A stretch of DNA of 60,562 nucleotides, counting the filler, from Hausera hauseri (Eukaryota): NCBI GenBank assembly GCA_046269625.1. It is 10 parts of 10 records of this genome, joined end to end, with 100 filler letters (N's around TTAATTAATTAA, not from the genome) between each part and the next. Parts side by side here need not be neighbours in the genome. Positions count along the whole stretch, not along the records: positions 5,869 to 10,189 come from JBJURY010636219.1; 9 more parts are not named here. One strand, written 5' to 3'. Position 1 is the first letter of the stretch, and each line of letters opens with the position of its first letter. The translations under genes and the position numbers were made by a program. A model generated the notes under the pieces. The model had not been told where the DNA came from. It saw nothing but the letters and a program-made list of their open reading frames with translations, and ran no database searches. This document shows, in pieces, positions 1 through 52,732 of the stretch.

Positions 1-429
1 ATGATGAAGGTGTGGAAATAAAAAGAGGGAGATAGATGGAACCACAAAGAGCGGCAAGATGGAAGAGAGTAAGAAGAAGTTGGAAGGTGACATGCAAGAG
101 GTTGGAATGATGAAAGGCGTAGATGGAGAGATTTGTGAAGTAAAAGTGGAGATTGGTAGAGAAAGTCTCGTAGATGAGGAAGGCAGATTGTCACCAGAGG
201 ATAAGGAAGATGTTAAGAGGCTTGAAGGTGCAGAATCAATGGGAGAAAAGGGGATGAACTATCAGAAAAAGTTGAAGTAGAAAAATTGTGAGAAAGCATA
301 GGGAAAGTGGGTTAAAGTATTAAACAGAAATAAGGGGTAAATTTTTGGATTGCTGCGCGTCGTGTAAAGATGTTGGTGGAGAAATGGTCTTACTGGGGGA
401 CGTATCGTCAACGAAGAAGGCCGGTTTAG

Positions 430-1400
430 CGTTGTTGATGTGGATTGTGACTTCTTTGTCGTCCTTGAGGATAATGACTTTATGGGAGTGTAAACAAATT
501 ACTTTGTAAGGGCCAACCTACTGAGGTTGAAAACCCCACTGCGTCTGGTTCTTTAGCCATACAAACTTAGAAGTACATAAATGATCGAGTATGTAGAGTT
601 TATTACTGTGTAACAATCTACAAAATAAATGTTTTCTGATCGCAACAAAGTGTCTCTGTGCCACTTGTATGGTTTCGTCTGCAGGAATATAATTCAGCTC
701 AGCCAGCTCGAATAATGGTCTGGTAGGAGTGCCAAATAATTCTTCTGCAGTTAAATAGCCTGTAGAAGTAGTTGGTGTGTTTCGCCAACCATTCAAAACG
801 TACGGAAGGAGTGTGGTCCAACTGCGTTTGGACTCAGCAAGGATTTTTTAGAGACGTTTTCATCGTTCGGTAGAAGCGTTCGAGAAAGCCATTCGATTGA
901 GGATGATAGGATGATATGTGTATATGGTTAATTCCCACTCGATTGGCGACAGCTTTAAACAGGTTGGATTCAATCTCTAGGCTTTGGTCTGAGATGATGT
1001 GGCTAGGTGATCCAAACCTGCTGATTCAAGTGCGGATGAAAACATCTGCGATTGTTTATGTGTTGGTGGTCCAAAGCGAGACAGTCTCTGGCCATTGAGA
1101 AGCACGGTCCATCATAATGAGGATGAACTAATGGCCGTTGTCTATGGGTAGTTGGCCTACAAGGTAAGTGTGAACAGATTCAAAACGAGACCTGCGGTGA
1201 AAATGATATAGTGGTGGCTTTGAATACATAGTAACTTTGTATTTTTGGCAAGCCTAACCCATGCCTGCACGTCAGATCGCATCTACGGCCATACTACTTG
1301 GCGTTGTAAGAGTCGAAAAATGACCTTGGCACCGGGATTATGCAACAAGTGGATGCTGTTAAATTCTTCTTTTTGAAGCGATTCGGAAAGGATGGTTTTA
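430..1400 (-). pseudogene. Gypsy integrase (disrupted)
   Basis: Manual translation gives ILIMMDRASQWPE, ISRFGSPSHIISDQ, SYHPQSNGFLERF, GWRNTP and a GPY motif near 510. Confidence 0.88.
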
Positions 1401-1639
1401 AGTTCATTAGGTTTAAAGGTGTCATAGGCCACACCATCGACGGTTTTTCACAATTTATAAGATTTAAGGATGTCAGGAGGTGGCTGGTTTCTTCGATATT
1501 TGGACTGAGGGAAATTTGTGTAAAATCAATCGAGCAGAACGATGGGAACAAAATGTCAGCTACTAGATTGTCGACTTCGTTTAAGTGCTTAATTTCAAAA
1601 CTAAATGTGCATAAATACGATACTTTTCCTCTCCTGACG

Positions 1640-2820
1640 TGGAGAAGGCGATTTCATGGTGAGAATTTGAAGCAGGGGCTTGTGGTCTGTTTGTATTGTA
1701 AAAGTTCGGGCAGCTAGTAGATGTTTAAAGTGTTTTAAGGCAAGGACCATTGCAAGCAGCTCTTTATCAAAGGTGGTATATTTTTGCTCTTGTGCTGTGA
1801 ATTTTCAAGAAGAAAATTCTAATTGCTCATTAAATCCATTTTTAACTTGATGAAGGACAGCACCTCCAGCTGTTGTAGATGCATCCTTGGTTAAGAAGAA
1901 TTCTTCATGGGAGTTAAGATAGGCAAACATTTCCACGGTTTTTAGATTGTCTTTGAGGTTATCAAAAGCGTTGACTAGATCAGCGGTCCATTGAATAGGC
2001 TGTTTTTGATTTACAGAGCTGAGTGACGCAAATGAAACAACTAGGATGGAGTAGTGTGGAATATACTTATGAATAAAGTGCAAGGTTCCGAGGAAAGAAA
2101 GCATCTATGTTGATGTACGTGGTAGCTGTATGTTTTTTAGCTGCGTGATGCGCTTTGGCTGTTGTGAATGTCCGGAGGAGCTAATAACATGTCCGAGGAA
2201 GTTGACTTTATGTTGAATAAAGGAGCATTTGGAGAAATTAATTTGCAAATTGTTTTGGTGCAAACGTTGGAAGACTAAACAAAGGTGTTCGCAGTCTTCT
2301 TTCGACGAAGGTGATGCAATTAGGATATCATCTTTATAAGGGTAAGCAAAGCCTAAACCTGAGAGAATTGTATCAATATGCCTTTGAAAGATCTCAAAGG
2401 TGCTACTGAGTCCAAAATGCATGAAAAGGTACTCGAAAAGGTCGAAAGGTGTAATGACAGCCGTTTTCGGAATGTCTGTAGGGGTTACCGGAATTTGGTG
2501 GTATGCTTTGTGCAAATCAATGCAAGAAAAAATCGTAGAACCATGGATCCTGTGAAGGATGTCATAGATTAATGTCAGAGGGTAGGCATCCATTACTGTT
2601 ATAGTGCTCAGTTGGTGGTAATCACCGCATGGGCGAAAAGTACCATCTTTTTGGAACCACGTGTAGTGGTGAAGACCAAGTGGATTTGGATTTTCTGATT
2701 ATTCCTGATTTTTCCATTCGAGAAACTCAAACTCCACTGCCTGTCTGCGGCGAGACGACAGTGGGCGGATCTTTTGACATATTGGTCTTTGATATGCTGT
2801 TACTATGAGATGGAACGTGG
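1640..2820 (-). pseudogene. Gypsy reverse transcriptase + RNase H (disrupted)
   Basis: ORF 2105-2593 has DAYPL, FSCIDLHKAYHQIP, KTAVITPF and YKDD. ORF 1805-2104 has LTKDASTTAGGAVLHQ. DKELLAMV follows in another frame. Confidence 0.92.
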
Positions 2821-3199
2821 ATTTATGTGGTACGAATGATTTGTCCTTTTGGACAAAGGAATGCAAGAAGAAGAAACATATTTCTGTAAGTTAGAGGGCA
2901 AAAATGAAAAACTTTTAGATTGTGTCCATGCATCTTGACTGATTCAGTTGAAATATGAGTTGTAGACGAGGTGTTGTGACAAGGTGGTATTAGGTAGAGA
3001 ATGTTTGTGTTGAAGATAGTCTTGGCAGATGTACTATCAGTAATGTGTGCCACGCAGTTGGCAATATCATATTTGTCATCGTAATAAAAATTTCTAAATA
3101 ATGAGTGAGTATAAAAATAATTCAAATCAGGAGTCGGTTTTTTAAATATTGACTTTCTGGCAGCGGTTGCCCGCGCAGTCACCAAAATGCTGTTAATTT

Positions 3200-3569
3200 G
3201 GTTAATATTGTTTCCGTTCTTTAAGGAACATCGTTTGCAGTCCACAATTAAATTATAGTGGGACAAAAAGTCATAACCCAATATAGGTGTACGTACATTG
3301 AATACTGTGAATTTCCATGTGAATGTGTTTCGAAAATTTGGTAGGGTAAAAGTTAATTTAGTGACACCAAAAATTTGTAAAGATTCACCGGGCGTAGTGA
3401 ACAGTTGCTTGTTAGAAGTAAAACTGTTTTGGATGTGCTGTGTTGATGGTAGTAAAGAGATTGCTGCGTCTGTGTCTATGAGAAAATTAATGTTTTGCCT
3501 TGTTGGAGTGACGACTACCGCTTCCAGCATGAATACAGCACAAAAAATGTGTCGGCCAGTTTTTTGCAA
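3200..3569 (-). pseudogene. Gypsy aspartic protease (catalytic DTG changed to DTD)
   Basis: FLIDTDAAISLLP ... PILGYDFLSHYNLIVD in ORF 2823-3569. The sister copy at 42863-43588 keeps DTG. Confidence 0.88.
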
Positions 3570-3599
3570 ATTGTTGCCTTTACTAGAACTTACCGTGTG

Positions 3600-4160
3600 T
3601 CCTAGCAGCGAAGTCAGTTTTTTGTGGTTGGTGAGTTTGGCCTACTATTTTGTGAGTTTAATAGTGTTGGATTTGTTGTGTGTGTTGTAGTTACAACCAG
3701 GCAGGCATTTTTGTGTTTTGTTCCAAATTTTGCGCCATAGAAACAAACTATGTTATCTGTATTAAAATCGGGGAATAAAATTTACAACTGATGCAGCAAT
3801 TCTGATCATTGTTCCCAAATTTGCTGTGATAGTAGCAGATAGATGACTGCGCAGGCGAAGGCGACCGTCTTTGTCGTTGACGAAATACATCAGGGGAATA
3901 AGTCCTAGGGAACATCCGTAAAGGCAGAGTTAATTCGTTTAATTTCTCATTTGTATTATTAAATGTTTTTTGCAATATTTTGTTTTCTGTGCGTAATTGA
4001 GAAATTTGTTGCTGCAGCATTGCATTTTGTTGAGAGTGGTTTGTTGTTAATGCTGCGGAGACAGTTGGTGCTGTGTGTGAGTGCAGAACTTCATAGGCTT
4101 TTTCCGCCAGTTCGGCTAATTTTTCCAGTGCCGTAGATTCTTCGACTACAGTGAGCAAAA
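3600..4160 (-). pseudogene. Gypsy gag, C-terminal part
   Basis: LEKLAELAEK, a coiled-coil-like stretch and CYYHSKFGNNDQNC..SC, a Cys/His motif typical of this gag type. Confidence 0.8.
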
Positions 4161-4257
4161 AATAGAGATAAATAGTGTCGGTTTTATGCATGATTAAAAC
4201 AAGTTCTGTCCGAGGAATCACTGCTGTTAAGGAAACCGAGATCATGCTTGTTCTTCA

Positions 4258-4407
4258 TGTAGCACTTTTCATCACCCCACAACTGTTAAACAACACCCGG
4301 AGAAAAGGGAGGCGTTCTGTCTCGGACTTGCGCGCCGCCCGGAGAACAACAAACCCCCGATCTCGTCCGGCCAGACGGGCCAGGGGGCAAACCATGTGGG
4401 TGCCACA
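4258..4407 (-). repeat. Short (~150 bp) GC-rich LTR preceded by a polypurine tract
   Basis: Minus strand reads GGGGGATGA then TGTGGCAC...GTGCTACA (8-bp terminal inverted repeat, one mismatch). It has a similar start to the LTRs at 20256 and 47387. Confidence 0.7.
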
Positions 4408-5280
4408 TCATCCCCCGTGGCTGAGTTGAAGAACTTTAAAGCACGACGAAGGGAGAAGCAGAAGCGCGAAAGGATGAAGGTATATTTAAAAGTGGACTGT
4501 TTCAAGGCGTTCAGTTCCTTTTTGGTATTTTACTCTGCAATATTTGTTGAATCTTATGGTTTTGCTTGCTCATATACGTGGTTTGTTTGTTTTCAGCTGA
4601 TTTTGGTGTAAAATCTTTGTTGGTTTTGGGATTGTGTTGGGTGAAGGTCGAAGTGAAGAAGTAAAAGGTGTCAAAGGAGGATGAGATGAAGGATGAGAGG
4701 GACTAGAGTTTGAAAGAGGCGGAAGTTGCGAAGTGGAAATGAGAGGAGTAAAAGATGGTGTGTTAGGAAAAATGGGGAAAGAAAGCACCGAATATGATGA
4801 AGGTGTGGAAATAAAAAGAGGGAGATAGAGGGAACCACAAAGANNNNNNNNNNATGGTGTGTTAGGAAGAAGGAAGAAAGAGGGTGCCGGAAATGACGAA
4901 GGTGTGTAAGGAGAAAGAGGGCTACAGAGAGGGGACGCTGAAGAGGAGCAAGACTAAAGAGAGTAAGAAGATGAAGAAGGTGAAGGAGATTGGTAAAGTA
5001 GAGGTAGTGATTGGGAACGAATGTCTCGTAGGTGATGGAAGCAGGTTGGCACCAGGGGACGAAGGCTATATTAAGAGGCTTGAAAGTGGAGAATCGGACG
5101 GAGTAAAGGGGATGAACTGTAAAAAAGTTTAAGTACAATGATTAAAAGAAAACGTAGGGGAAAGTGGATTAAAGAATTGAACAGAAATAGGGGGTGTATT
5201 TTTAGATTGCTGCGCGTCGCGAAAAGATGTTGGTGGAGAAATGGTCTCGATGGGAGATGTATCGTCAACGAAGAAGGCCA
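4408..5280 (-). mobile_element. 3' end (post-integrase Pro/Ser/Thr-rich region) of further copies of the same Gypsy family, spanning a 10-N gap
   Basis: 4794-4843 matches 1-50 with one mismatch. ~4900-5280 aligns with 1-423. Confidence 0.85.
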
Positions 5281-5868: not shown

Positions 5869-5949
5869 ACACTTCAGTTCTAGGTGGAATACCATCGTCC
5901 GCTGTGATCCATACTTTTCCGAATTGCCCATCTTTGGTGGTTCTAACCC

Positions 5950-6330
5950 CTTTTATCGGATCAAGTTCTATTAATTTGCCTGCATGAAAGTCTATTGTTA
6001 CATTCGATAATTATCTCAACAGATCGCATTCTAATATTGCATCATCTTTTAACTGTTCCATTACTGAGAATTCATAATGGAAAGATTGTCCCATTATGTG
6101 AATTTCAGGGTTCCATCGATATTCACTTTTTGATTACTGTCCGAAGACTCCAACTTCCTGGCTCTGTTATTGGAGGTGGATACAATTGTTTCCATAGAAA
6201 TTGAGATATCGAATCATGTTTTATCAATGATATCTCCGATCCTGTGTCTATCAGTGCATAAACCTCCCAATATTCTAACTCAATTTAGGCGAATTGTCTA
6301 CCTTCGATTACCGTACCGTAGCAATGTGGT
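5950..6330 (-). pseudogene. Retropepsin-type aspartic protease (not in the ORF track)
   Basis: Manual translation gives GRQFA*IELEYWEVYALIDTGSEISLIK (DTG at 6240-6248), then after a frameshift FSVMEQLKDDAILECDLLR*LSNVTIDF (ILGxDxL-like motif). Confidence 0.85.
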
Positions 6331-6749
6331 GCTATTTTTGGATGTCGAATCGTTGACGCCTTATAGCCGTTAATTTTAAGTTCTGTGGTGGCAACTGGTT
6401 GGTTGATTAACTATTTTAGTTCTTTATTCGGGTACAGTTCATTGTTCGCACGATTGACGGTTTCTACTTCCTTATTTCTAACGGATGTCTGCAGTTCTTG
6501 ATTTCCAAAGGTCTGTAATTCTTCGTCTCTCGCAGATGTTGATTATATTTCATTTGTTCTAGGTACTCTAGGTAAATAAAGTATTCCATAATCGTTCATC
6601 GCTGAGTATCGATATGGCGCTTATGTTCTTTTTGTTTCTTGTACCTTACGTAATACACCGTAGTGTTTTGTTCCTTCATAGGGGTCCTCGAGGCTAAATG
6701 GTTTTATATAGATATTCGTTTGGTATGAGCTCTTTGTGTCTTAATATTT

Positions 6750-8670
6750 ATTTATTTATGTTTGTAATTAAATGCGTTTCTTTTCCGATTATGATAGCCA
6801 ACATGTCGTTCGACATCTGCTTTCCATTTGCTTTCTTTGTAAGCCTTTAGGAATTTTCCGAATGGGTGATAATAGCCGTTAAAATCTTACACATTGAATC
6901 CTGTCAGAGTGAATATCTCATATCCGTTAATAATCGCTTGAATTATTGCCTTAACCAATTGAATTAAGAAATAGATTGCTAGGAATCCTGATGTGGCTTG
7001 TTTAAACATTAAAAATCTTCCAGAATTTTATATAATATTTCAGTGGTCACTGATAGTAGTTAACACCAATTAATGATTCCCTTTTTCTTGATAACGCGAA
7101 TCGTCTAGTATCGTATGCATAGCTCGGTTTAGTTCATGCGTGCACTGACGTGGAAAAGCGAGACATTGTCTAAACGCCTCCACTACTCTTGGTCGGTAAA
7201 TGCCCTCTGCTCCAGCATCTTGAAACTTATCACCAGTTATCAACTTTATTAAGTTCGTTCCAGTTAACTTGATGGACTGCGTGATTATACCACCGTTTGG
7301 TAAACTTAACCAGTCGGTTTCGCTACGTCTAAACATAGATTCTCTTAAACTTGTCTTAAAATCTTTCATAATTGTCAGTTGAGTGGAGTTTGTCAGAAAT
7401 ACTCTAGTAATCGGTGTCACTAATCTCGGCATGTCCTGATATATTACCGGCAGTTATTGTATGCATCTCTTTTCTTCCACGTTAATGAGTACATCTTTTT
7501 TTCGCATCCATAGGTCAGTAGGACTTCTCCGGTCGCTCGACCAAAAATGCCTTCTTCCACCGGAATTATTGGTGATGCTAGCTCGGGGTTGGCATATATT
7601 AAAGCCAATTTGATTCTCATGACTTCCAAGTCTAACTTACAGTCATTCGTTATGATTTTGTGGAATACGTCGGCTATTCCGGCTTGTCCTTTATAATAGA
7701 AATAATCATCTCTATTTTTCAAATAATTCTCATTTCGAATATCTTGAGTCTCAAGCTTGAACATTTTGGTATTTATGTCGGTCTCAGCTACAAATAATGC
7801 TTCATAATTAGTGGCATACATTACTACATCTCATCTGGTGAGTACGTCTATCTTCACGAATTTTAATCCATAAGTATCGGAAATTAATATGGTAGGTGTA
7901 GGCTGTTCAGCTACATCTTCTCGCGTTTTCGAGTTGACATTTATACTACTTCCATAACGTTTTCCTGTCATTTCGCTAAACTAAAATTCTTTAATTTTGA
8001 TAAAATTGCAATCGGTCTTGGCTGGATGTTCCCAAATTACTACGGAACTTCTAAAAGCACAAGTGCCGTCTTAAATGTGGCACTTTTGGTTTTCCGTGTA
8101 GAGTTTAGTAACGCTATGAAACATCACTTTTTGTGCTCGCATCTCGGTTTCATAAAAATCCGCAATTACTATATTCGATTCTATTCCTTTACCGGTATCG
8201 TATTCCGCACCGATACAATGTCCGGTATGCATACCTAGTTTTCCTGGTGCTACCTTCAATGCTCTGATTATTTTCCCTTGCCGAATTTCCAATTCCATAA
8301 CATCTCACTGTAATCTGTTTCTCTGGCTTGTTTACAATTCTGGCGCTCCAAATTCATCGGAATTGGTGGGGTCGTTGGTTTAATTATTGATGAGTGTCAG
8401 TGTATAAGTCCACAATGGAAGACACTTCGAGATCTTTGCAATATACACTTGATGCCATCTAACGGGACTAGTTCTCGTTGTTGGTACAATATGTAGTTTT
8501 TCTCATTCGTCTCTAGTTTATACGGTTGTGCACTTTCGCGTATTTCCAAATCCATCATTGAGTTTTTCTGGCCAAGTTTAAACTTGTCGCAGTCGTATAT
8601 TATAACAGCTCCTATTTGCCTTATTAACATCATCACCGTTAAAGTTAATTAGCCAGTTCGATTCGTTCCC
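6750..8670 (-). pseudogene. Chuvirus-like (Jingchuvirales G-type) envelope glycoprotein, fragmented
   Basis: Collinear motifs: signal-like LTLTVMMLIRQIGA, then VIIYDC, KCILQRSRSVFHCGLIH, GHCIGAEYDTGKG, GEVLLTYGC, LVTPITRVF and GIY. The membrane anchor ATSGFLAIYFLIQLVKAIIQAIINGYEI is at ~6915-7000. Confidence 0.85.
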
Positions 8671-8699
8671 TTAAGTATTTCCGGTTATGTTTCGTACCA

Positions 8700-9700
8700 T
8701 GTCCTCATGTTGGCTGACTCTCGAGTTGATTTACGATTGTTCTTCTTCAACAACCAACACATAAAACGATGTTAAAAGAACCAGCCGTGGCTAAGAGATC
8801 GTGAAGGGTTGGGTCTTATGGCGGTCCAACAACTGAATGTGGTCTGCGCTCGGGAGGTCGACGGATTTAGATAATGTCCTGTTGGAAGTAAAATGGTTGA
8901 TCAGTTTCATTACTACCGTAAGACGACCGGATAATATCGTTTCTATTAATAAGAGCAAAATTGTAGAATCACTAGATTGTTGGAATAGACGGAGCTATTT
9001 AGCGACTCACAATTTACATAAGGTTCAGCCCTTAACCTAATGTCCTGATCAACGGGAGATATCACATCTGTCGGTTTCACCCGAACGAGACATTGACCTT
9101 ATTCATCTCGTAAGAAATTTCTGAATGATGATTTGAGTATATACCGCCAAATTGGGCGCAATTCACTCGATAAGTAGAGAAATAACATGGTTACTTGATA
9201 GAAATTGATATATTTATAAATAGGTCATTAATTTAAACGTTATGCATGAGTCATTAAATCAGTTGTTGTGTAAGGAAGACAATATGTCCTCTTCATCCAT
9301 TCATCCATAAATTCTCCTAGGATTCATGATTTATTTGGACATATTAAGGAAAAGTTAGCGTAAGTGCAATAGTCGTATAGAAATTAGAGTCATGCAATTC
9401 GGTTTATACTCTGACAATTCAGATTTCTCGTCGACGGTTGTGTCAAGATAAGGCATCAACAGTCGATAGTTGTTCATCAGAATTGGTGTCAGTGGGATCA
9501 CCCAACACAGCTTCTGCATTCACATTCAAACTTATACCATCGTCAGACTCCATTATCCGATTAAAGTCCGGTCAGTAGGCTGACATCTCAGCAAAAGGGA
9601 AATCCTATCAATCTACCAATTGTCAGATATCACCAGCGTCTCGGTTTGTCTACATATAATGATTTTTAGCCGGGAATTTATCCTCTTGTCATGTCGTCCA
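8700..9700 (-). pseudogene. Probable gag remnant
   Basis: LKSSFRNFLRDE*GQCLVRVKPTDVISPVDQDIRLRAE (~9020-9140) resembles the capsid CTD pattern FxxGLxxExxxxLxxxxPxTLxxAVxxAxxxE. CVGC at 8750-8761 may start a decayed zinc knuckle. Confidence 0.5.
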
Positions 9701-10189
9701 GAATCTGTTTAAGCGGTGATTGCAGTGACGACTCGGGCTAGCACTATCGCACTGAATTGCTATCATTTTCTAACCTTGATTAGAGCGACATAATTCTGTA
9801 TTCGAACACAGGGCCTGTTATTGTCAAACATAATTCTAAATTCACAATTCGTCTTTCAACTTATAGTCAACAAGAACGAATCATAGAATTCATTTCATTT
9901 CGTTAAACCAATTTTATTACAAAATCCTTATATAATTTAGTAAGCGGTAGTAAACGTATCATATTTATAACTAATTATTCCGTAGTCGATCACAGTATTT
10001 ATCGTTTGATTTTTTATTAGATAATCCAACTACTAACTCACCATTATACTCTTCCTTGCTGATCCGATACCGATTCTTCTGATCGGTTCATATTGATCCT
10101 GACAGAATAAAAGTTGGATGCTCCTATCGATGGTAGTAAACAGATGTGATGATCATGATACCTTGGAATCACTTATGATTAATGTTGTG

Positions 10190-10289: not shown

Positions 10290-13200
10290 CAGAACTCTGA
10301 CATAGTCTTGAAAATTTATCTTTTTGGCCAATGTAGTTCTTTGAACGCCCTTTGCTCTCTTTTGATTTAGCCACATACGACCAGAGCATACATTTTTGAT
10401 CGCAGTGCTACGAAACCCGTAATGATCTTCCCATTCACCTCGTCTTTGAATTTCCAGAGGACTTTCTTGTTGTTGGTTGAATAATTTGGATGATACTTCG
10501 GATAATCCAATGTATTCATGTGTTGAGCCAATTGGGCAAAATCTTTGTGCATGTCCTCAGTATGGATTTGATAAATAAAACTATCAGTATCAATATACAT
10601 CACCTGTATGGACTTGAATGTTGGTTCCATTATATCGTTTGAATTCAAGTGATGTTTTGAGCATATGGATGCCTACCAAGTTCTCAGCATATATGGCGCT
10701 GCTGTGGAAGTTAAGCTTGTCAATAATCTTCTTTGCCCGCTTGCAGTCACATACTAGCTCGATGTTGATCCTGTTGCGGATATTCTACATTGTCTTGCCA
10801 AAAACGCTGTTATTATACAGCTTAAATTGATCTTTCTCGAACTCGTTCTTGGCATTTTTCCGCAGCTTGGTATTCATATCAATGTATGACTGCAGCCACA
10901 TTGACCGGCTGAAGTGTGGGATTCTATGGACCTTAGTAATGCGGAGTCCATATTTAACTGCTTGCTGGAAATTGATGTAGTGGAAAACATACCTCTACCT
11001 ATTGCTCAAATGACAGAGCAACTTTTGCTGCTTTTAGGGAGGGAAGGCTGTTGTTGATGCCTTGTGTAGATGGAAGCCAGATACTCGATATCCACATCCA
11101 GTATGTAGCCCGTATCTCCAGTGGGATCCAGGCCCAGGATAGGAATGTCTTCAGGATGCTCAACCCACTTGAAGTTATAATATGGCAATGGGACGCTCAT
11201 TACCTATCCATAAAAGTTGTCAGCTTCCAGGTAGGAAATATGTGATGACTCCTTTATTAAGTCGTATTCAGCCATACACTTGTTGTTGGCCTCGCTATAC
11301 TGGTGAATGGCTTGTCACATTCCACCTCTAATGCCTCTTTTGATCATAAGGATCATATCGTAATCCTTAATGATTTACAGGCGGATACCGGCATACTGCA
11401 GCATTATGCAGCTTATCCCTGGTGCCGTGAGGAAACGAGCCGGATCCAAAGTATGGCTCTTCAATGTGACATCCCTGAAACTTTCAAAGACATCTGACAG
11501 CAGTAGCATATCGGTATGGAGATATATATCACTATATTCCTATAATGTTTTGCATTGGAATGACTGCCAGACGTTCTGAGTATGCTGGTAGTCCTCATCA
11601 TAGATATCACAGTCCAACAGCTGGCTGTAAAAGTTTTTCTTGGTCGACAATGAGGATCCATCCAGTGTTTCCCATGATGTTATATAGTCATAGGGAAACA
11701 CTCCTTTGCGTTTAACCAGGTGGAAGTTATCCGGAAAGAATCGCTTCGTTTTCTCGAGTTCTTCGGCAGGCATGAACTCGGAAGAAGCGAAGTCGGATTT
11801 TACCAACATGCTTAGTGAAAGTAATATATTTCTCCTCACTGTTGGGGATCACATCTATATTGCCATCAATGTTGCTTAATTCTCGGACTATGAAGTGGCT
11901 GTCATAGCCGCTGAGATTGTGGAATACCACAGGCACATATTTGCATGTTTAGCAGCGAAGATTAAAGTTGTTACATGCTGCGCCCCGATATGCACCTGTA
12001 AAATGGTAATGATCCTTGACTTTCCAATTTTCCTTGGTGAAGGACTTGTCTCAAAAGTATCATGATGCTGCCTTGCACCATTCTTGTTCTTGTATCCAAG
12101 ACATGCTCATGTCATACTTATGTTGTTGCTGCATTTTTTCAAGCCTATGAGCCATGTCTTCAAGTCTCTTCATGAAATGTGCTGCTGCTCCTGGACCCCT
12201 GAATAGATATGGTTCACTGTCCAATCCTTTGACATACATACAATACGATGATAGTTCATGATATTGGTATGCCGTTGTACTGCTATATTGAGGACTGGAA
12301 CTGCATGTGTGAACTGGCCTGAGAATGGCCTCAAAGTCGCAATAGACGACAATTGGGACCTTGATCTCTTCTCGAATTCCTTAAATTCGATATAGTTCCC
12401 TTTGGGAAATTCTGATCTTACACAATAACTGTTGTTGCAGTACATCTTGTGCTCTTTAAGCTTGTCCACGGTTTCTTCACCACTGAAATGGGACAAGCAT
12501 AGTTTCCATATTTCAATTCCATGTTCATGCTTTGTTATTTTGGATCTGACTGGACACTCAAAGTTCTTTATCCAAACAAAATGTTTCTTATCACCATAGT
12601 CTAGTAGGAGCAGATCCCTATTACCTTCCAATTCAGCATCACATATTTGCAAGTGATAGAATTTGTCCTTCTCATCCAATCCAAAGATATTGATGGACAT
12701 GTTGTTGATGTGGCTGAACTTCTTGATTTCATCTATGGATGGAGGGAATGTGATACACTGAAAGTCGTAGTTGTTTTGGAGATCATTATATAGCCAAATC
12801 CGATTTGCTGCATGTTTTTGATCCCGTACGAGTTTGCATAAAATGGCTTACATGAAGCACTTGTTGTAATTATTAGACATTCGTGCAAGTATTTTCTGCC
12901 GAATCCATTCCGGAAGCTGTATATATGAACTGCCTCGCATGGAGGAGTATCTGTGTACATATAGAAGCAGTCTCTTGATGGTTGCCAGAGCCCATCCACT
13001 CTTCTTATCCTGGCTCTCATCGACTTCACGGATCAGCTTCGTATGCTCTTCATGCAGCCATTCAGTTATATTTGTGTTTCCCAATATGGGCCTATTTTTG
13101 GTCTTGAAGGCCTTATTTGATTCTTCAGCATCGACATTGACGTATGTGGCCTCAATTTTCATATTAACCTTAAGGGCCTTGAGCTCACTCATATTGTCCT

Positions 13201-13651
13201 GGAGGATCCCGTTTGTTTCTTCCTTTGCATATTTCAGGAACTCCTTAATGGTTATTTGCCCAGCTGCATCAATGACATATTTGCGGACTTTTTTCTGTAA
13301 TGCAGCAGCATCAACTGGCTACTGTCTTTGGCTTTTTGGCGGAGCCGCTACGTCTGTTGAGCCTGAGGCATCTGATGGGCGTTTTAATCCTGATTCTCGA
13401 TGTACTGCAGGCAGTACTGCTGCCGGCTGCACTGCTGCAGGCTGTACTGCTGCATCTAACTGTACTGCGGACTGTGCAACTGGTCTATGTTCATTAAATA
13501 TGATCTTCTTGGACTTTGATGCGAAGTCAGTCAAATGATCCTTGTAATCTTCATAGAATTGTATGTATTCTCCTTCGTCACATGCAGTCTCACATCTGGG
13601 GCAAATAGAATAGAGGATCCTATTGAATTTGTAACTCTAATAGCTACTCAT
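10290..13651 (-). pseudogene. Polinton/Maverick (adintovirus-like) protein-primed DNA polymerase B, disrupted
   Basis: Motifs in order: GSSYIQLPEWI, endonuclease VII-like [71 protein letters not shown]. Confidence 0.93.
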
Positions 13652-17536: not shown

Positions 17537-18490
17537 ACCATTTATTCGACCATCGACTTGACCAAAGCATACCATCAAATACCGGTGTCACCCGAAGACA
17601 TAGAAAAAACTGCTGTCACTACTCCTTCTAACCTCTACGAGTACCTGTTTATGTCTTTCGGTTTGCGAAATTCCGCACAGACCTTTCAGCGACATATTGA
17701 CTCAATTCTCTTAGATTTTCCGTTTGCACACCCTTATTAATGATATTCTGATCGTTTCGTCTTCGGCCAAACATCACAAGGAACGCCTTCGCGCAATATT
17801 CCAACGCCGTAACCACCATAATCTCCAAGTCAATTTCGACAAATGCCATTTCGTCAAAAAGCGCATAAACTTTTTAAATCACGTTATTTTACAAGACGGC
17901 CACTCTCCTCAATCAGACCGAGTTGAAGCCCTTAAAAATATCCAGGTACCACGTACAACCACTGAAATGCGCAGCTTTCTTAATACACTACACTTTGTAC
18001 ATAAATATGTACCATATTGCTCTGAATTGACAGCACCATCATCAGTCAATACAGTTGGTAGACAAATTTGATAAGTTACGCGAAGGAATTAAGACCGTCG
18101 ATATTCTTGCTTTCCCCAAGGCTGATGCGGAACTCATCCTTACCACAGACGCTTCAACCGCTGCAGTAGGTGCTGTGCTTCACCAAATCCACGAAGGAGA
18201 AAATCAACCGCTAGAATTTTTCTCTCGCAAGCTAACATCCGCTGAAACTCGAAATTCAACGTTCAATCGAGAGTTATTGGCCATTGTTCTTGCTTTAAAG
18301 CATTTCTCCCACCTACTTGTCTCTCGCCATTTTACTACAAACCGATCACAAACTTTTACTTAACATCATGGCTATGAAACATCCTTCCACACGCCAAGAA
18401 CGACAGACATTATATTGTCGACATTTAACTTAGACATAAAACATATTAATGGGGTTAATAATTTAGTTGCCTATTTTTTATCTAGGTTGG
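17537..18490 (+). pseudogene. Gypsy RT (C-terminal part) + RNase H
   Basis: ORFs 17558-17740, 17724-18071, 18055-18363 and 18415 onward carry RT/RNase H motifs separated by frameshifts. Confidence 0.9.
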
Positions 18491-18679
18491 TTAGTTCGAT
18501 TAATTTTTCACCGATTTTTACGCAAGCTCAACTTCAACAGAACCAGTCACCTCAAGACATGCTTACTTCTTCCAAGTCTTGCAAAATCGTTGACGGCGTG
18601 GCTTTAGACACTTTCAAACCAGGTCATTCCATAATAATTCTCGCACCATCATTACAAAGCAAGCATTTAATAGCGTACA

Positions 18680-19620
18680 TTCGCTACACCAGCCTGGTGC
18701 TAAAGCAACTTTTTGTTTCCTCCATTGACAAGTAATACGGCCGTCAATGCGTTTTGATGTGTAGGCATGGGTTAAGGAGTATGCGGCTTACCAAAAGTAC
18801 AAAACAACTAAGCATTTAAAGCCACCATTGTTCCACTGGCCATATACATCGCGTTTCGAATCCGTGCATACCGACATCGTTGGCCCTCTTCCTCCTGACA
18901 AAGGTCATCAATTCATTCTCACCATTATGGACCGTTCCTCGCGATGGTTAGAAGCCACTGCTCTGCGAAGCACGAACACCGATACCATAGCTGACGTTTT
19001 CATTCTCACATAGATTAGCAGGTTTGGATCACCTCGCTTCATCATCACGGAGCAGGGTCCACAGTTTGAATCTAACCTGTTCAAATCCCTTGTTAACCGA
19101 CTGGGGACCCATCACATACGTACTACGCCTTACCATCCCCAATCGAATGGCCTCCTAGAACGCTTCCACCGAACATTGAAAACGTCACTAAAAACCCTTG
19201 CAGAGTCCAACACAAGTTGGACGAATCTTCTTCCGTTTGTTCCGCTTGGCTGGAGAAACAGTCCGTCTAATTCTACGGGATGCTCACCTACTGAAGTCTT
19301 ATTCAGAGCTCCTGTACAATTATTGTTCGAACTAACTGCCCTAGACGACACTTCTACAGATGAAACGATACGTGCGGCTCAAAGTCACTTCGTTACTGTC
19401 AGCAAAGATTGGTTCTGTAGGATATTTGACAAAGACAAAACATATTTACCCGAAGACTTGTATTCGGCAAAATTTGTATGGCTAAAAAATTAGACACCGT
19501 GCGGTTTTCAGCAGCGGTATCTGGGGCTCTATTAACTAATACAGCTGCATTCACATAATGTTATTATCTCTAAAGACGACAAAGAACTTACAGTACATGT
19601 TACCAACTTAAAGCCCGCCT
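18680..19620 (+). pseudogene. Gypsy integrase
   Basis: ORFs 18828-19013 and 19176-19493 plus the intervening frame carry rve-domain motifs. Confidence 0.9.
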
Positions 19621-21821: not shown

Positions 21822-22502
21822 GTTCGACTCGGGTAGCAAGTTGGTCTTTGATCTGTTCATTTAAAGCGTTAGAGAAGATACCTCGTAAGGCCAGTTCGTC
21901 CCATCCGGAAGTGAATGGAAAACTCTGCCACAGATTGTTGTCCTTGACGTAATGCTAGGAATTTCTTTGAGGCCATCTCCTGATGAAGAGGAAGTTCAAA
22001 AACTTTCTGGAAGTCATTCAGGAAATCAGAAAAAGTGCAATTATTAATTGGAGAGGATTGAAAATACGCATGAGCCCATCTTAAAGCGTCTCCTTGGAGA
22101 GCAGAAATGAAGTAAGTAATACGAGAGGAATCGGAGGAAAAAGTGATTGGGGCTCTATCAAAGGCAAGATTACATTGCAACAAAAAAACCACCAAAATGT
22201 TCTAGGTTTCCACTAAAAAACTGTCTTGGACGGATGTCGGGCTCACGACTACGTTGTTGAAGTGTTAGGTTGGATGAGGGAACTGGCGCGGGAGTAGGTG
22301 TCGAGGCAGAGGAAGTAAGAAAAGTAGTTAATTTCTTATCGAGGGAATCAAGTATACCTCCTAGCTGCTCCATGTTATTGGATTGCAATTGTTGTTGGGT
22401 TAAAATTTGCTGTAGGGATTAATTGTTCTTGTCAATACGTCTCTCTTGAGCAGCTAAAGATTCAAGAACTCGTTCGTTGTTGGTTTGGCTGTGAGTACTC
22501 AT
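21822..22502 (-). pseudogene. Sushi-type (PEG10/RTL1-related) Gypsy gag, teleost-like, disrupted
   Basis: REPDIRPRQFFSG...FLLQCNLAF...RITYFISALQGDALRWA...LRQGQQSVAEFSIHFR, with ATG at 22502, one stop and frameshifts. Confidence 0.88.
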
Positions 22503-29405: not shown

Positions 29406-30575
29406 GGACGGAAATGTTTACGGTATCGTGTGCTGAGTCCTTCGGGCTTGGGGAAATTTCGTAGATTTTGTTTTGGGGTTGCTGGGAATCCATTTATGTT
29501 CCCACTTTAATTCGGCATTTATACCCCTTAGATATTGGGATCGTTGACTATCGGTAAATAGTCGGCTTATTTTTATATTTCCTCCAGTCATTGCCTCTAC
29601 CATTAACTTAAATCGGCCTTCCACGGTCGGTGGTAGATGACCCTTTTTTCTCTTTAACCTTGATTTCCATTTGTCCCATTACAGTTCGGTGGGTCTCTAT
29701 CTCTCTCATTCCGGCTATGTGAGTTATTGGTATGTTTAATTTCTCTATCATTCTTTCTACTTGATACCCCACTAAGACGTATTTGTATAGGCACTGTGCT
29801 ACTTCCTCTTGCACTAATCTGGAATCCTTTCAATGAATTAATTGTTCTCTTTTAATCCCGGTTACTTCTGCATAGGTTTGTCGTACTTTCTTTCTTGGGT
29901 TAATGATTTTCAAATAGACTTCGGCCTCGTTTTCTTCTCGTATGGATATTTGAATTGGGATATAATTTCCTTCATCTGCTTCTCCATAATTTATCGCGGT
30001 AATCCTGATATTTCAGTCATCGGTTACCAATCTTAATGAGTGCAGATGCGCGTCCTGTTCTTCTTCGTGGGCCTTTGCTTAAACTCTAGGGGTAACAGTG
30101 AAGTAGCTATTGTTTCCTCTTCGGTTATTTCGACCATCATTTTTACGGGTAAGGCGGCTATATAAAATTCCAGCTCCTAATTGTGGAAATTTCTACTGTT
30201 AAATACAAATGTGCTAAACCGACTTTGTCTTCCTAGGAATGAATCCCATTTTTGGTTTTTCAGCCGATAATAGATTTCCCCGTCGGCTAAGTGTACATAT
30301 ATTTTCTGTTCTTTATCCGTTTGGTGCTGGGTGATCTGTTTTAAGGGGTATGCTTTGGCATCCTTATCTTCTCTCCAGGCATATAAATATATAGCTCTGG
30401 CCTCTGCAGTTGTTCCTTTTAAATTGTTTGGTATGTCGTCAACTTTTTTGTACTGAATGAAGTTTTATCCTCGTAATTTTGTGTTGATTTGCCTATAAAT
30501 GGCTTTGGAGTTTGAGATCCGGACGGTTACGTACTGTTGCAGGAATTCGTCGATGCTAGGTCGACTCGTGTTCAT
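29406..30575 (-). pseudogene. Unknown extra ORF downstream of the membrane protein (decayed)
   Basis: ATG at 30575 (MNTSRPSIDEFLQQYVTVRI...) a short way after a TTTTTTTTCAG acceptor-like site. Long coding-like stretches broken by stops; includes ORFs 29608-29814 and 29418-29624. Confidence 0.45.
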
Positions 30576-30693
30576 TTTGATTCGGTTACTTACCAGTCTG
30601 AAAAAAAATATAAAGGTTAATCTTAAAACAAAGTATGGCTTTAAACCAAAACCAATTCTTTGTTTGATGACAAAATAACCTGATCTGTAATTG

Positions 30694-32110
30694 TCAGGTT
30701 ATTTTATCATATGGATCTACAGGGTTTTCCAATTCCCTTAATTCCCATTCTGAATTTTTAGGACGCTTAGAATAATGGGTTTTGGCGACTAATCGAAAAA
30801 TCGCAATTAACATAATGAGAAAAAACGTTGATGTTACTGCAATAGTTATAATTGGTAAGACGGTTAATACCAATGGTGCTTGAGTAGTAACAAAAGTTGT
30901 GGTTTCGTCGTTTTCATTCACATATACGTGCGGTTCTGCATGAATTCCGTCCGAGGTACGTAGTGTAACCGTCTGGTTTTGCTTATTCTTTGCATGCACT
31001 TGTATTATGTGTTCAAACTGTGGTTTTAGTAAGCTGCATTCTACCTGATAAGTATTTTTAATTATTATTATAATTTGAGTATTATAGGTTGTCCGACAAC
31101 TTATGTGTATATCGTAATTTTGTGTCTTTTCCACAAAGAATACGATTTTATAGCAGTGTGCCTTATATTTGATAGGGCCGTTTTCCAATTCCACTTTCGG
31201 TACGTTGTTTGCCACAACAGTTCAAGTAGTGGGATTAACCTTAGTAGTCGACTTTTTGGTCGTAGTGTCCACTGAAATTTCTCAGATTTTATTTTCTGGA
31301 TAGTAAGTTCGGAGTTGCACACTTGGTCTGCAAGGTCGTACTTCATATAAATCAAATTTATTTTGAATGCCCGATTTACAGGTACCTTACAACATTGACG
31401 TTGTACGCCCGCTCGAACAGAACAATATCTTATTTTTGGAGTCGGCCCCATCGTTGCTTCGAATGTGATACTAATTTCTCGGTTACTAGTTAGTTCGGCT
31501 CGGGCGTTCACCTGGATACATTGTTTTGCCTTATTAACAGAGATTTTCTGGTTATTCTCATCTAATAACCTTATATCCGTGTTAGTAGATCTTAACACCT
31601 CGTTAAGTTTTATTCCATGATTTCTGTTACATGCAGAAATAACTAATTGAAATTGTGGTTTCGTTTCAATATATGCTTCTACTGAATCCAGCAGGTACAT
31701 GCGGTAGGTAAGATTATAAGTTTGTCCAAAGTCGACGTCGCAAAACTGTGTATAATCTTCCGGTTCAAAATCACAGTTCTTTGCTTCTATTGTGGTTACA
31801 TCTTCTAGGACAATCTGAAATCTTCCGAAATCGTGGTGCGGTTTCCAAGCTTTGAATCCAACACATACGGAGTCTGGTGAATAATAATGAATTGTCATCG
31901 ATTGCAATAATTTAATGGCTTCTGGTTTTTGGATTTCTTCGTCTGTCGGTTTCTTTTCTATTTTAGTATCCTCCGATTTCAATCCGCTTTTCCGAATTCC
32001 ATATATGTCTCCCAGCGTAGATTCATCGTGCCACCATTGAGTTTGTGCTCTCGAAATATGAGAAGCAATTAACAATAATGGTAAAACTATCTGCACGTAT
32101 GATATAGGTC
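30694..32110 (-). pseudogene. Type I membrane protein with FN3-like ectodomain in the env position (one frameshift and one stop near 31220-31300)
   Basis: Signal-like YVQIVLPLLLIASHISRA (~32046-32100). FN3-like motifs GQTYNLTYRMY, ENGPIKYKAHCY and LLKPQFEHIIQVHAKN. TM segment LVLTVLPIITIAVTSTFFLIMLIAIF (~30795-30875) and a short tail. Confidence 0.72.
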
Positions 32111-32918
32111 TAGCAACTATCGGGGAAGCCTTGAACTCGCGTTGGCGTAAATTATAGCGTTTATTGGGTCGTATTTCAGTCTTAACAACTCTTTGTACTG
32201 ATAAGACTTCTTCTTTCCCATTCTTATTGATATATACTGCGGTTGGCGTAACTCTGGTAACTTCGTACGGTTCTCTGACTGCACCAGTTAATTTTAATGA
32301 TGTGCCTTTCCTGGATACTGGATAATGTACATAAACCCAATTTCCTTGTTTTAGATCGTGCGGCTTTGCTGTCTTATCACATTGCTTTTTAAACTGTTCT
32401 TGATATTCTTGAGATAACGCCTTGGCGATTTCCCTACACTTTTGTAGCCGCGTCTGTAGTACTTCTGCAAAATTTTGTTCTAAATCTTCGGGATTGACCG
32501 TATATGGCGTCATTCCTAAATCTGTGGGTAACACAGCTTCATGTCCATACATCATAAAAAATGGTGTAAATCCTGTCGCTGGATGTGGTGTGGTATTAAT
32601 GGCAAATTGAGTTCCTTCCAAGAATTCGTCCCGATCTTTTTGGTCCTTAGCGACTACTGTGGATAATATACGTATGACAGTTGCGTTCATTCGTTCAACA
32701 ATCCCATTACATTGAGGATGATACGCAGTAGTTGTTAGCCGTTCAATTTCAAATATCTTAGTGATCTTGTGGGTTGTAGGAAGAGGTCCTACAATATCCA
32801 TAGAAATAGCTTGCATAGGTCTCTCTGGCACATTAATTGGTTTTAATTCAGCCATGTAATTTTTCGTCTTCTTTTGTTTAGTTGCACATACTTCGCAGGC
32901 ATTTAACCAATTCTTCAC
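31101..32918 (-). CDS. 605-aa ORF: Gypsy integrase (internal deletion in the core) fused in frame to the membrane-protein ectodomain
   Basis: CEVC, MDIVGPLP, AYHPQCNGIVERMN, TGFTPFFMMYG and RYNLR, with no stop before the hydrophobic signal segment. The region holding the second catalytic Asp is absent. Confidence 0.85.
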   Translation of the reverse strand: MKNWLNACEVCATKQKKTKNYMAELKPINVPERPMQAISMDIVGPLPTTHKITKIFEIERLTTTAYHPQCNGIVERMNATVIRILSTVVAKDQKDRDEFLEGTQFAINTTPHPATGFTPFFMMYGHEAVLPTDLGMTPYTVNPEDLEQNFAEVLQTRLQKCREIAKALSQEYQEQFKKQCDKTAKPHDLKQGNWVYVHYPVSRKGTSLKLTGAVREPYEVTRVTPTAVYINKNGKEEVLSVQRVVKTEIRPNKRYNLRQREFKASPIVARPISYVQIVLPLLLIASHISRAQTQWWHDESTLGDIYGIRKSGLKSEDTKIEKKPTDEEIQKPEAIKLLQSMTIHYYSPDSVCVGFKAWKPHHDFGRFQIVLEDVTTIEAKNCDFEPEDYTQFCDVDFGQTYNLTYRMYLLDSVEAYIETKPQFQLVISACNRNHGIKLNEVLRSTNTDIRLLDENNQKISVNKAKQCIQVNARAELTSNREISITFEATMGPTPKIRYCSVRAGVQRQCCKVPVNRAFKINLIYMKYDLADQVCNSELTIQKIKSEKFQWTLRPKSRLLRLIPLLELLWQTTYRKWNWKTALSNIRHTAIKSYSLWKRHKITIYT

Positions 32919-33299
32919 ATCAATGTAGATACTAGGCTAAAAGTATTTATTCATTATTCTCTCTAATGTTTTCTTCCTGGACATGTATCCGGCTAGGTAC
33001 GAGTCATGTTTTGACGTTAGCACTTTAGTTCGTAACCCTTTGGGTATGACTATCAATTTCCTTTCTCTGCTCGTAATATAAAATATCTCCATCGCTCTTG
33101 TCATTCAGGACGCAGTATTTATGTCCATGTCTGTGGAAATGCTTCTTTAGCTGTCGTCCCTTCGGTATGATGTCCTTTTTTGCAAATTCTATATTCTGCT
33201 TAATAACTTTATCCTTTCTCTGTTCTGAGGAGATTTTAATGGCTTTATCCAGCGCTAAAGCGCGTTGGCGGTATACTATTGCTTCAAGTTGACTTTTCT

Positions 33300-34497
33300 T
33301 TATTACCGTGATTGCGCTTGTTTTAGTTTTTAATCTTGATAGTGCATCGGCGTCTACATGTTTATTTCCTGGCTTATATTGAAATTCAATATTTTATCTC
33401 GATATTTCTTCGATCCATCTGTTAAGTCTGCATGTCGGGTTGTTTGCTCGGCCTTTCAAGGTCGTAGCGGCCTTGTGATCATTGACGATTATAATTTTCT
33501 GCCCGTGAACGTAAACGTTGAAGTGGAAAAGTGCTTCTTTTACGGCTAGAGTTTCCAATTCGGTAACAGAATAGTTTTTCGCGGTCTTCAAGGAACGTCC
33601 TCCATAAGCAATCGGGTGCTCTAATTATTCATCTTCTCTTTTCTGCGCTAATTCATATTCAATACCTTCTTTACTGGCGTATGTCTTGATTATGAAAGGT
33701 AAGCTAAAGTCTGGATAACGTAAAACGGGTTCGCTTTTTAATATCTTTTTCATCTCATCAAAGGCTTTCTGTTCGACGTCATCCTATTTCCATTTAATTC
33801 CTTTTTAAGCAGACTATATAGAGGTGCGTTTATCTTTGAATTATCTGGCACAGGTTGCATAATAACCACAGAGTCCTAGCCAGTGCCTTCATTCTTTTTT
33901 GTTTTGCGGTTCCGTGCAGTCTGAAATTTTATTTAATAATGATTTATCCGGTTTCGATCCTCCTTCTCCAACTATATGGCCGAGGTAGGATACGGTATTT
34001 TGAGCCCATTTGCATTTCTTTGGATTTAACTTCAATCCGGCTTGTTCTATTCTCATCAGTGTGTGTTCAATATCCTTTAAGTGTTCCTTTTCGGTCTTTG
34101 ACGCTATTATTACATCGTCTCAGTACGCAAAAGCGTGATCCAATCCCATTAACATTTTATTCATCACTCTCGTAAATATGGCCGGCCCGGTAGTAATACC
34201 GAACGGCATGACGTTGAATTCGTAAACACCGTCGTGTGTTTTAAATGCTGTCTTATAACGGTGTTCATCCTCAATCTCTACTTGCCAATATTTGGATTAT
34301 AAATCTAGAGTAGTAAACCATTTTGCTCCTGAGAGTCTGTCTAGGGCCACTTTGACTGACGGTAACGGAAAGGAATCTTTCATCATAAGATTATTTAAAG
34401 CTCTGTAGTCAATACAAAATCGATGTTTTGTGGTACCTTTCTTGTTAACCATGAGGATCGGTGAGTACCAATATCTGTAGCTGGGCCTGATTATATC
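33300..34497 (-). pseudogene. Gypsy RT + RNase H, disrupted
   Basis: RFCIDYRALN, WFTTLDL, KTAFKT, MPFG, Y*DD and NYSVTELETLAV. Confidence 0.92.
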
Positions 34498-45249: not shown

Positions 45250-45900
45250 CTGCAGCTGTAGATGGCGATGAAGGTGGACCTGATGGTGGAGTGAGAGATG
45301 TTTCTTGAGAATTTATATAATGAGAGGTAAGTGGTTGAGATGCTGCTGTTGACAGATCCAATACAGTTTCTATTACTGTGGAATCTCCAAACTAATATTG
45401 AAGAGTGACTGTAAGAATTGTGAACACGTATTTGGATAACTCACAACGATACTTATGGACTAGACGATTATACAAACATAGAGCAAATCCAAAATCGCTT
45501 TTACGATCATGCAAACAAGCTTCAAGTGCAACTGCTAAAGTATATTGATCAATTTTATTCCCCTCCTCCAAATGTTTATCGAGCATAAGGAAACATTCCT
45601 TCATTAATCCGGCTCTGGTCATAGCCAACAACAGTGAATTCGTTGCTGCCAATTCTTTACATGTGTTTTAAAAGGAACACTGTATGTAACAGTAGATGGT
45701 GAAATTCCAATTTCTTTTTCACGGTAGAAAATTCTAAATGCTGCTTGACTATACCTGTGCTTGTCATCATCATCTGCTAATATTAGATCTAAGTTACTTT
45801 TTCTAACACGCTTCTTAAAATGCGGTTCAGAAATCAATTTTGATTCATCAAATTTATCCAGCTTATAGGCCTGATTTTCTTCGGCTAAATTCATGGAGAA
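45250..45900 (-). pseudogene. PTCD1: Pentatricopeptide-repeat protein fragment, PTCD1-like, frameshifted
   Basis: AAFRIFYREKEIGISPSTVTYS, NSLLLAMTRAGLMKECFLML and ACLHDRKSDFGFALCLYNRL...QY*FGDSTV parallel the PTCD1 segments GCIQDKKTGFRYALQVW...DCGLGDP, as recalled from memory. Confidence 0.68.
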
Positions 45901-46680: not shown

Positions 46681-47228
46681 GTACAGAGCGAAATTGTTTG
46701 ACAGATTATTATACGGAGAAATACCGAGTTTAAAAAATGTTTGAAAGAAATTTATTGGTTGAAGTGCCCATTCATACGCTTGACATATGATACGGCTAAC
46801 ATTCGTTTAATTTACATTTCGTTTAAAATCTTCGTGATATTTTTGTATTCGTTTCGTAAAATATTTCGGATATGCAGCAAAACACGAACTTTCAACGCAA
46901 TGATTATAATGAGGATGAGGAGGCAGAGGAAATAACAAGACATTGTCCTTTATTGCTTTTTTAAGCATCCTGACGGTAACGAATTGAAGGCGCCCGTCGT
47001 ACACAAGTATAGAAAATGTGTGTGGAAAATATGTACAATATATCACACAGTTATGGTACTTCTCGCATACTGACACACGGCATTAGCACACACGCATTGT
47101 TTTGTTCCATGATATTCTTGAGCTTTTTGAAAAGGAGGTAATATGCTCCATTTTGCTTTCAGATAAAGTCATTGTATACTCTTATTTCTTTACGATCGAC
47201 TGGCTACAGAAGTTAAGAATTGGTCGTG

Positions 47229-52524: not shown

Positions 52525-52624
52525 NNNNNNNNNNNNNNNNNNNNNNNNNNNNNNNNNNNNNNNNNNNNTTAATTAATTAANNNNNNNNNNNNNNNNNNNN
52601 NNNNNNNNNNNNNNNNNNNNNNNN
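52525..52624. other. Artificial contig spacer
   Basis: 44N-TTAATTAATTAA-44N. Confidence 0.98.
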
Positions 52625-52692
<68 letters not shown>

Positions 52693-52710
52693 TATCATCA
52701 TTATCATCAA
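52625..52710. repeat. (ATC)n microsatellite
   Basis: Direct reading; it lies at the contig edge. Confidence 0.97.
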
Positions 52711-52732
52711 TATCATAAGCATCATCGAGATC

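Follow-up and report, generated by a model that had tools for sequence, protein, structure and literature searches.

The window analysed here is a stretch of 60,562 nucleotides from Hausera hauseri (GenBank assembly GCA_046269625.1), in which short contigs are strung together with spacers of 100 N bases. The finding is confined to positions 5869-10189 (JBJURY010636219.1), a single contig flanked by such spacers on both sides. Its minus strand carries, in this order, a signal-like segment, a glycoprotein (G) of the Pfam family PF24664 (Monjiviricetes_fusion) in three frameshifted pieces, a transmembrane (TM) anchor and a Ty3/gypsy protease (PR); the contig stops short of the reverse transcriptase (RT). 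The G pieces are consecutive single-frame readings of the minus strand, with X at the stops. E-values from the family profile are independent E-values (iE), and hydrophobicity is given on the Kyte-Doolittle (KD) scale. The features of the contig are the following.

8650-10189, minus strand: upstream DNA, earlier called a gag remnant; eroded linker or accessory region, or unique flank
8598-8648, minus strand: hydrophobic, signal-like segment immediately ahead of the YDC start of G (KD of the 17-mer 1.98)
8313-8648, minus strand: G piece 1, profile positions 7-118, one in-frame stop (Pfam E 1.4e-9; tblastn with relatives)
7483-8304, minus strand: G piece 2, profile positions 151-385, in a different frame, three stops (Pfam E 6.8e-7; phmmer)
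6890-7474, minus strand: G piece 3, profile positions 393-585, in a third frame, four stops (Pfam E 8.8e-11)
6929-6991, minus strand: predicted TM anchor of G (KD 2.05; matched in the alignment by a conserved TM in 12 relatives)
6303-6928, minus strand: amphipathic tail and linker, no gag or long terminal repeat (LTR) seen (about 250 codons from the TM motif to the protease active site)
6200-6302, minus strand: first half of the retropepsin, with DTGS at 6248-6237 (family profile iE 0.0035 over 6284-6200; tblastn to P0005)
5872-6112, minus strand: second half of the retropepsin and a conserved stretch that precedes RT in relatives, up to the contig end (family profile iE 3.6e-7)

The curated PF24664 cut-off (27 bits) is passed by all three G pieces, and the motifs YDC, HCG, GxCxG, GEV and TPxTR are all present. 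An earlier reading of this DNA from the sequence alone, called the original prediction below, had claimed a glycoprotein with these motifs, a signal-peptide-like segment and a TM anchor, and each of them is found, the last two at 8598-8648 and 6929-6991. The window copy thus holds, between a signal and a TM segment, an envelope protein (Env) of the HSV/gB-type (class III). The AlphaFold model of G from the relative P0010, which is a model of a relative and not of the window G (mean predicted local distance difference test score, pLDDT, 61), has HSV-1 gB as its best match (E 4.4e-12), at a TM-score of only 0.22-0.27.

The protease was examined with a profile of the RT-proximal proteases of eight relatives, run against 3024 pieces of the window. 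The second half (6112-5872) is the top match among these pieces and ranks above the window's other gypsy proteases. The first half, which contains the DTGS motif, lies in a different frame. Together, the motif and the two profile matches bear out the retropepsin of the original prediction; Pfam at E<=0.1 does not detect the window protease. The homology of G ends at 6890-6770, the outer limit being that of the homology to P0015, and PR starts near 6300, which gives a linker of 470-600 nt. The original prediction had put the linker at about 400 nt and called it too short for a gag; the length needs correction, and the second statement stands. On this strand Env is therefore followed directly by Pol, with a gap of less than 2000 nt. 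The interval from TM to protease is about 250 codons in the window copy versus 124-384 residues in 12 of 13 measured relatives. A scan of the linker for a slippery heptamer gave none, and a candidate second protease remnant within it was rejected as not significant (profile iE 6).

The copy is heavily decayed, as had been claimed. Eight in-frame stops lie within the aligned G, and at least three frame breaks occur overall: near 8300-8316, near 7465-7500 and between the two protease halves. The window copy is therefore unable to make the protein.

The interpretation of this dead copy depends on its relatives (P-numbers), which are mostly proteins from ENA assemblies; one of them, P0009, is labelled as derived from a Flavobacteriaceae bin and is taken as mis-binned eukaryote DNA. 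A full HMMER search (phmmer) with G piece 2 gives 59 matches at E<=0.001, with a best identity of 32%, and a word-index search of the same piece against longer proteins found nothing. Among 15 long matches examined with Pfam, G is followed by an aspartic protease in 10, by RT/RNase H as well in 5 and also by integrase in 4. The full set of G, protease, RT/RNase H plus integrase is present in the cluster members P0064 (4844 residues) and P0068 (3003 residues). The Pol of the relatives is made up of the families RT_RNaseH, Integrase_H2C2 and gag-asp_proteas in the order PR-RT-RNase H (RH)-integrase (IN), while none of the families that we take to be of BEL/Pao type occurs among their Pfam matches. 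Of the two placements considered in the original prediction, Gypsy and BEL/Pao, the families and their order therefore indicate Ty3/gypsy.

The tree of G contains 45 rows, after 44 of the 68 stored proteins were kept, 21 dropped as fragments and 3 left without a match. It splits in two, and the window G falls within a clade of 22 rows with a Shimodaira-Hasegawa-like approximate likelihood ratio (SH-aLRT) support of 100. In this clade, a protease motif follows in the same open reading frame (ORF) in 14 of the 21 relatives (11 of 18 clusters at 90%), and the other seven end no more than 215 residues past the compared region, too early to reach the protease. None of the 23 members of the second clade continues into a protease. 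Such a difference between the two clades implies that the order of env and protease is heritable. A one-off insertion, which the original prediction had named among the outcomes that would speak against it, does not fit the fusion of G and PR in so many clade members.

The multi-copy nature of the family is seen in the public run X1, which contains 0.67 of the sampled window words and is possibly the source of the window itself. The stretch is covered by 3526 contig records of X1, of which 2184 are less than 90% alike, so the G-PR family is multi-copy, with many diverged copies. The depth in X1, which is a depth of contigs and not a copy number, reaches thousands over G and PR, and all linker bins have at least 55, against 5-10 for the locus's own depth. 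Taken together, the junction of env and protease is very likely both real and heritable.

The relatives also indicate how such an element is expressed. In them, a single ORF without interruption encodes first a CCHC knuckle, then the signal, G and its TM, followed by between one and several proteases and by RT, RNase H and integrase; a second signal, ectodomain and TM often come after these. In P0026 and P0009, knuckle, G, PR, RT, RH and IN are contained in one ORF, and a CX2CX4HX4C knuckle precedes G in the same ORF in all six proteins checked. Pfam marks of Gag before G are Retrotrans_gag in P0021 (E 1.7e-4, below the cut-off) and zf-CCHC in P0014 and P0022. The lineage-level polyprotein of the original prediction, Gag-signal-Env-PR-Pol, is upheld in this form: [Gag]-signal-G-TM-PR-RT-RH-IN is read in one frame in relatives. 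For the window family, such a single Gag-Env-Pol frame is likely, judging from these sequences. Nematode endogenous retroviruses (NERV) are also said to have a continuous gag-env-pro-pol ORF. The window copy is probably a dead Ty3/gypsy retroelement with a gB-type (chuvirus-like, class III) env directly before the protease; in intact members of its family, Gag, Env and Pol would likely be made as a single polyprotein threaded through the membrane.

In the proposed mechanism, Gag would be made in the cytosol until the internal signal opens translocation into the endoplasmic reticulum. A cut by signal peptidase immediately ahead of YDC would leave Gag, or an accessory tail, anchored by the hydrophobic core of the signal. 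The anchor of G would then stop the transfer, so that PR-RT-RH-IN would be placed on the cytosolic tail of Env. Clustering of Env trimers may bring the proteases together and activate them, and the active protease would release the enzymes and trim Gag at the membrane where budding takes place. Capsid, fusogen and enzymes would in this way be coupled without a spliced env mRNA. The domain order in the relatives supports this predicted topology, with PR and Pol cytosolic behind the TM. Of 13 relatives, 12 have a small residue at position -1 and all 13 have one at -3 (background 0.24 and 0.46), for a cut site assumed to lie three residues before YDC; at the same assumed site, the window signal has the small -1 residue as well. 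In the flavivirus capsid and the hepatitis C virus (HCV) core, a lumenal cut by signal peptidase leaves the upstream protein tail-anchored. By the same tail-anchoring, Gag would remain bound to the membrane until a second cut. The original prediction had signal peptidase release Gag; the separation of Gag from Env is retained, and a free Gag is not, as it would stay anchored by the signal core.

Several observations weigh against this reading. The contig itself contains no RT, gag or LTR. No bridge from G to PR in another copy is present in the 8 listed of 3587 X1 pieces, and X1 may be the window's own source. A quick method was used for the tree of G, in which the branch of the window row is long (1.82) and drew a long-branch warning; 21 of the 65 matches had been left out of it as fragments. 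The assumed cut site was picked after inspection of the sequences. In P0009 and P0021, a second hydrophobic stretch (KD 1.8) follows the G anchor; if it crossed the membrane, Pol would become lumenal, and the model therefore requires this stretch to be amphipathic. P0005, P0008, P0010, P0013 and P0064 start only 150-210 residues before G without a gag mark, so either the Gag fusion is not universal or the gene calls are cut short. Searches for the DNA context and LTRs of the relatives yielded 131 pattern matches in the metagenome collection, 275 in the viral one and 60 in the genome one, none of which was confirmed. In favour of the reading, P0064 has an extra signal-like stretch among its proteases, which is followed about 20 residues on by a second hydrophobic stretch with basic residues; such paired stretches would keep the enzymes cytosolic.

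The relatives show further variation of the polyprotein. Retropepsin-like domains are repeated, with eight DTG motifs in P0064 and five in P0014, some of them after the integrase, and repeated proteases together with ankyrin and C2H2 zinc-finger inserts are distributed among P0064, P0014, P0005 and P0008. Between Gag and Env, a weak Bcl-2-like domain is present in P0010, P0022 and P0008 (Pfam E 0.001-0.2) and, by eye, in P0024. P0022 has a weak ubiquitin-like match before G (E 0.03), and P0016 has, between Gag and Env, a stretch judged by eye to be exonuclease-like.

The region upstream of G is the point at which the original prediction fails, as the gag-like remnant placed at 8700-9700 finds no support. 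Three frames of 8688-9589 match no Pfam family at E<=0.1. A capsid profile from five relatives has no match in the contig among its top 12; its sensitivity is low, as a genuine gag fragment of the window, at 21872-22201, reached no better than iE 2. When 8620-10189 was compared with the pre-G regions of 14 relatives, 3 of 42 pairwise tests reached p<=0.04, namely the signal segment itself and two non-collinear matches, with a positive control at z 25-33. The density of stops equals that of shuffled DNA (P 0.50-0.68) versus 0.0 for G. The depth in X1 is about 5-22 over 8769-10073 versus thousands over G. A word-index protein search with one upstream frame, which is not the frame with the fewest stops, found nothing, and nothing convincing as a primer-binding site or LTR was seen upstream of G. 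Two candidates were rejected here: a single degenerate knuckle-like string near 9518, whose frame is rich in stops and which probably arose by chance, and a Bcl-2-like accessory domain at 9000-9300, where a profile of four sequences gave no match. The segment 8650-10189 probably represents an eroded linker or else unique flanking DNA. A search of the window for a repeat partner of this 4.3-kb contig found none.

It is unlikely, although worth considering, that Env and Pol are fused as described above while Gag has an upstream ORF to itself or is connected through a frameshift, with Env-Pol having its own short leader. This arrangement would suit the five relatives with short starts, two of which (P0008 and P0005) rank with the rows that lie closest to the window G along the tree, as well as the lack of a gag in the 1.5 kb upstream of G. 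The available text of Chary and Hayashi (eLife 2026, PMC13524379), who describe related elements, refers to three ORFs, and neither "fused" nor "polyprotein" occurs in it. Against it stand the Gag marks in frame with G in P0009, P0011, P0014, P0021, P0022 and P0026. Moreover, the linkers between knuckle and signal are 200-600 residues long and would place the capsid at or beyond the end of the contig, where the gag of the window copy, if any, would lie. If Gag were separate, the three-part polyprotein of the original prediction would not apply to the window family.

Two other explanations concern the junction itself. In the first, the two would be chance neighbours, with G as the env at the 3′ end of an ordinary gag-pol-env element and a protease from a second element that is nested or adjacent; this is highly improbable. 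In its favour, the depth over the linker is the lowest multi-copy depth within the G-PR span (55 versus thousands), none of the listed X1 pieces spans it, and the assembly is fragmented. No integrase is found by Pfam in 8688-9589 upstream of G, however, the spacing between TM and protease is within the range of the relatives, the profile from G-fused relatives prefers this protease to the other gypsy proteases of the window, and the window G belongs to the PR-fused clade. That a gypsy copy took up a chuvirus glycoprotein in a single event, as an endogenous viral element, or that the copy is an Anakin-like BEL/Pao element, is barely credible and is largely refuted. Its appeal comes from PF24664 being a Monjiviricetes family and from chuvirus G being known both solo and in Pao elements of mosquitoes, according to the available part of Dezordi et al. 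2020 (PMC7642597). The window G is nevertheless covered by thousands of diverged records, and the proteins closest to it are polyproteins of retroelements, in which RT_RNaseH and Integrase_H2C2 follow the order PR-RT-RH-IN; none of the families that we take to be of BEL/Pao type, the type of Anakin, is among the Pfam matches of the relatives. A solo chuvirus element would have G without linked retroelement genes; here a protease of the family type follows, and G sits in the PR-fused clade. The preferred reading thus remains an env-protease order inherited within a Ty3/gypsy lineage.

A second contig of the window, 29406-34497, which has no physical link to 5869-10189, carries the following features.

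32112-34497, minus strand: RT-RNase H-integrase (Pfam RVT_1, RT_RNaseH; tblastn)
30799-32105, minus strand: after the integrase, a second signal (32055-32105), an ectodomain broken once in frame and a TM (30799-30849), laid out as in five relatives

In a tree of 10 rows without named reference RTs, the RT of this contig groups with those of five env-protease relatives (support 98/98), and the two other gypsy RTs of the window fall outside this clade. The second signal, ectodomain and C-terminal TM after the integrase are also present in P0005, P0009, P0016, P0064 and P0068. The ectodomain carries the motif L-x-P-x-T-x-Y/H in four of these five, which we take to be a motif of the fibronectin-III (FN3) domain. 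Single-sequence folding of the ectodomain was useless (pLDDT 31), its Atlas matches were all below 0.9, and Pfam gave only IL17R_fnIII_D2 at E 0.24. Likeness between the ectodomains is weak (p<=0.025 in 4 of 21 pairs), and a word-index search of the post-integrase region of P0068 against shorter proteins found nothing. It is a tentative and rather doubtful suggestion that the clade may be a two-surface-protein retroelement, with the order Gag-signal-gB-type fusogen-TM-repeated proteases-RT-RH-IN-signal-second ectodomain-TM, in which the FN3-like type I protein would be the receptor-binding partner of the fusogen. Beyond the post-integrase TM, an ORF-like stretch at 30039-30572 (minus strand) has no Pfam match. 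Small TM-bearing ORF3s after pol are reported for rotifer elements in the available text of PMC5408684.

The window contains other elements as well. Polinton/adintovirus-like genes lie at 52525-60562 (plus strand) and 10290-13600 (minus strand), with a weak double-jelly-roll match at 57549-58241 and an Adeno_PX match at 58315-58878; their protease-like and DNA-polymerase-B-like ORFs were judged by eye. Three related decayed gypsy copies of another family occupy 1-4840, 17537-19500 and 42097-45020, of which 2000-4100 and 42100-44100 are about 80% alike, and their RTs group apart from the env-protease clade. A fragment at 52103-52420 (minus strand), without a Pfam match, resembles a vertebrate retrovirus RT, presumably, by a motif that we take to be typical of it. 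A Ty3-capsid gag fragment is found at 21869-22201 (minus strand, E 5e-12), and a Ser/Thr-rich open frame of 395 residues at 45619-46806 (minus strand) has no convincing Pfam family.

The order of genes is itself already published, and the window copy adds a decayed, divergent member. Chary and Hayashi, after Sacco et al. 2022, describe GAG-ENV-POL elements with an HSV/gB-type ENV in Nematoda, Bryozoa and Platyhelminthes, as far as the available text of PMC13524379 goes, and the premise of the original prediction that env normally lies 3′ of pol is out of date in this respect. The same text reports such elements as non-monophyletic, and cites NERV (Sacco et al. 2022) as metavirus-type with ENV and POL flipped. 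An example close to the window lineage is the set Smed_errantivirus_1-6 of Schmidtea mediterranea, listed there in configuration C1a as "ancient errantiviruses", with 45 and 215 copies of the first two. Like the window lineage, these elements have a Ty3/gypsy Pol and a gB-type Env placed before Pol, and they are multi-copy; unlike them, the window copy is decayed, and it shares no more than about 30% identity with its best relatives in the library. By eye only, the six available domain I rows of the Smed Env look homologous to the clade of the window G, and their pattern YQES/EC/HCG..S recurs in the relatives and, in weaker form, in the window G. The 15 nematode C1 Env rows look unlike the window G, also by eye. 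A single fused ORF, repeated proteases, processing and a post-integrase membrane protein are not discussed in the available text of PMC13524379. The literature search found no further paper on the post-integrase membrane protein or on an env-upstream-of-pol polyprotein; Sacco et al. 2022 was outside its reach.

Two systems share single traits with the window lineage. Anakin (Dezordi et al. 2020, PMC7642597) has a glycoprotein of the same family captured by an LTR element but, in the available text, a Pao Pol rather than a gypsy one; the same source places the envelope-like genes of the BEL-Pao members Roo, Tas and Cer-7 downstream of the polyprotein. Atlas virus (Belpaoviridae; PMC9094657; bioRxiv 10.64898/2026.03.22.711591) encodes, according to the accessible parts of these sources, one polyprotein of 2828 residues that includes Env, so expression of Gag, Pol and Env from one ORF has a precedent. 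It differs by its Gag-Pol-Env order, its class II phlebovirus-like fusogen, its BEL/Pao affiliation and enzymes that are not downstream of the membrane anchor.

The dead copy in Hausera hauseri thus adds one host record and a divergent branch, about 30% identical to anything in the library. Placing the enzymes behind a membrane anchor would mean that the Gag:Pol stoichiometry, the activation of the protease and budding are solved differently from gag-pol-env elements. Since intact multi-copy members are reported in the laboratory animal Schmidtea, this arrangement is testable on native tissue. If the post-integrase protein is indeed an attachment factor, the clade would represent a retroelement with separate proteins for binding and fusion.

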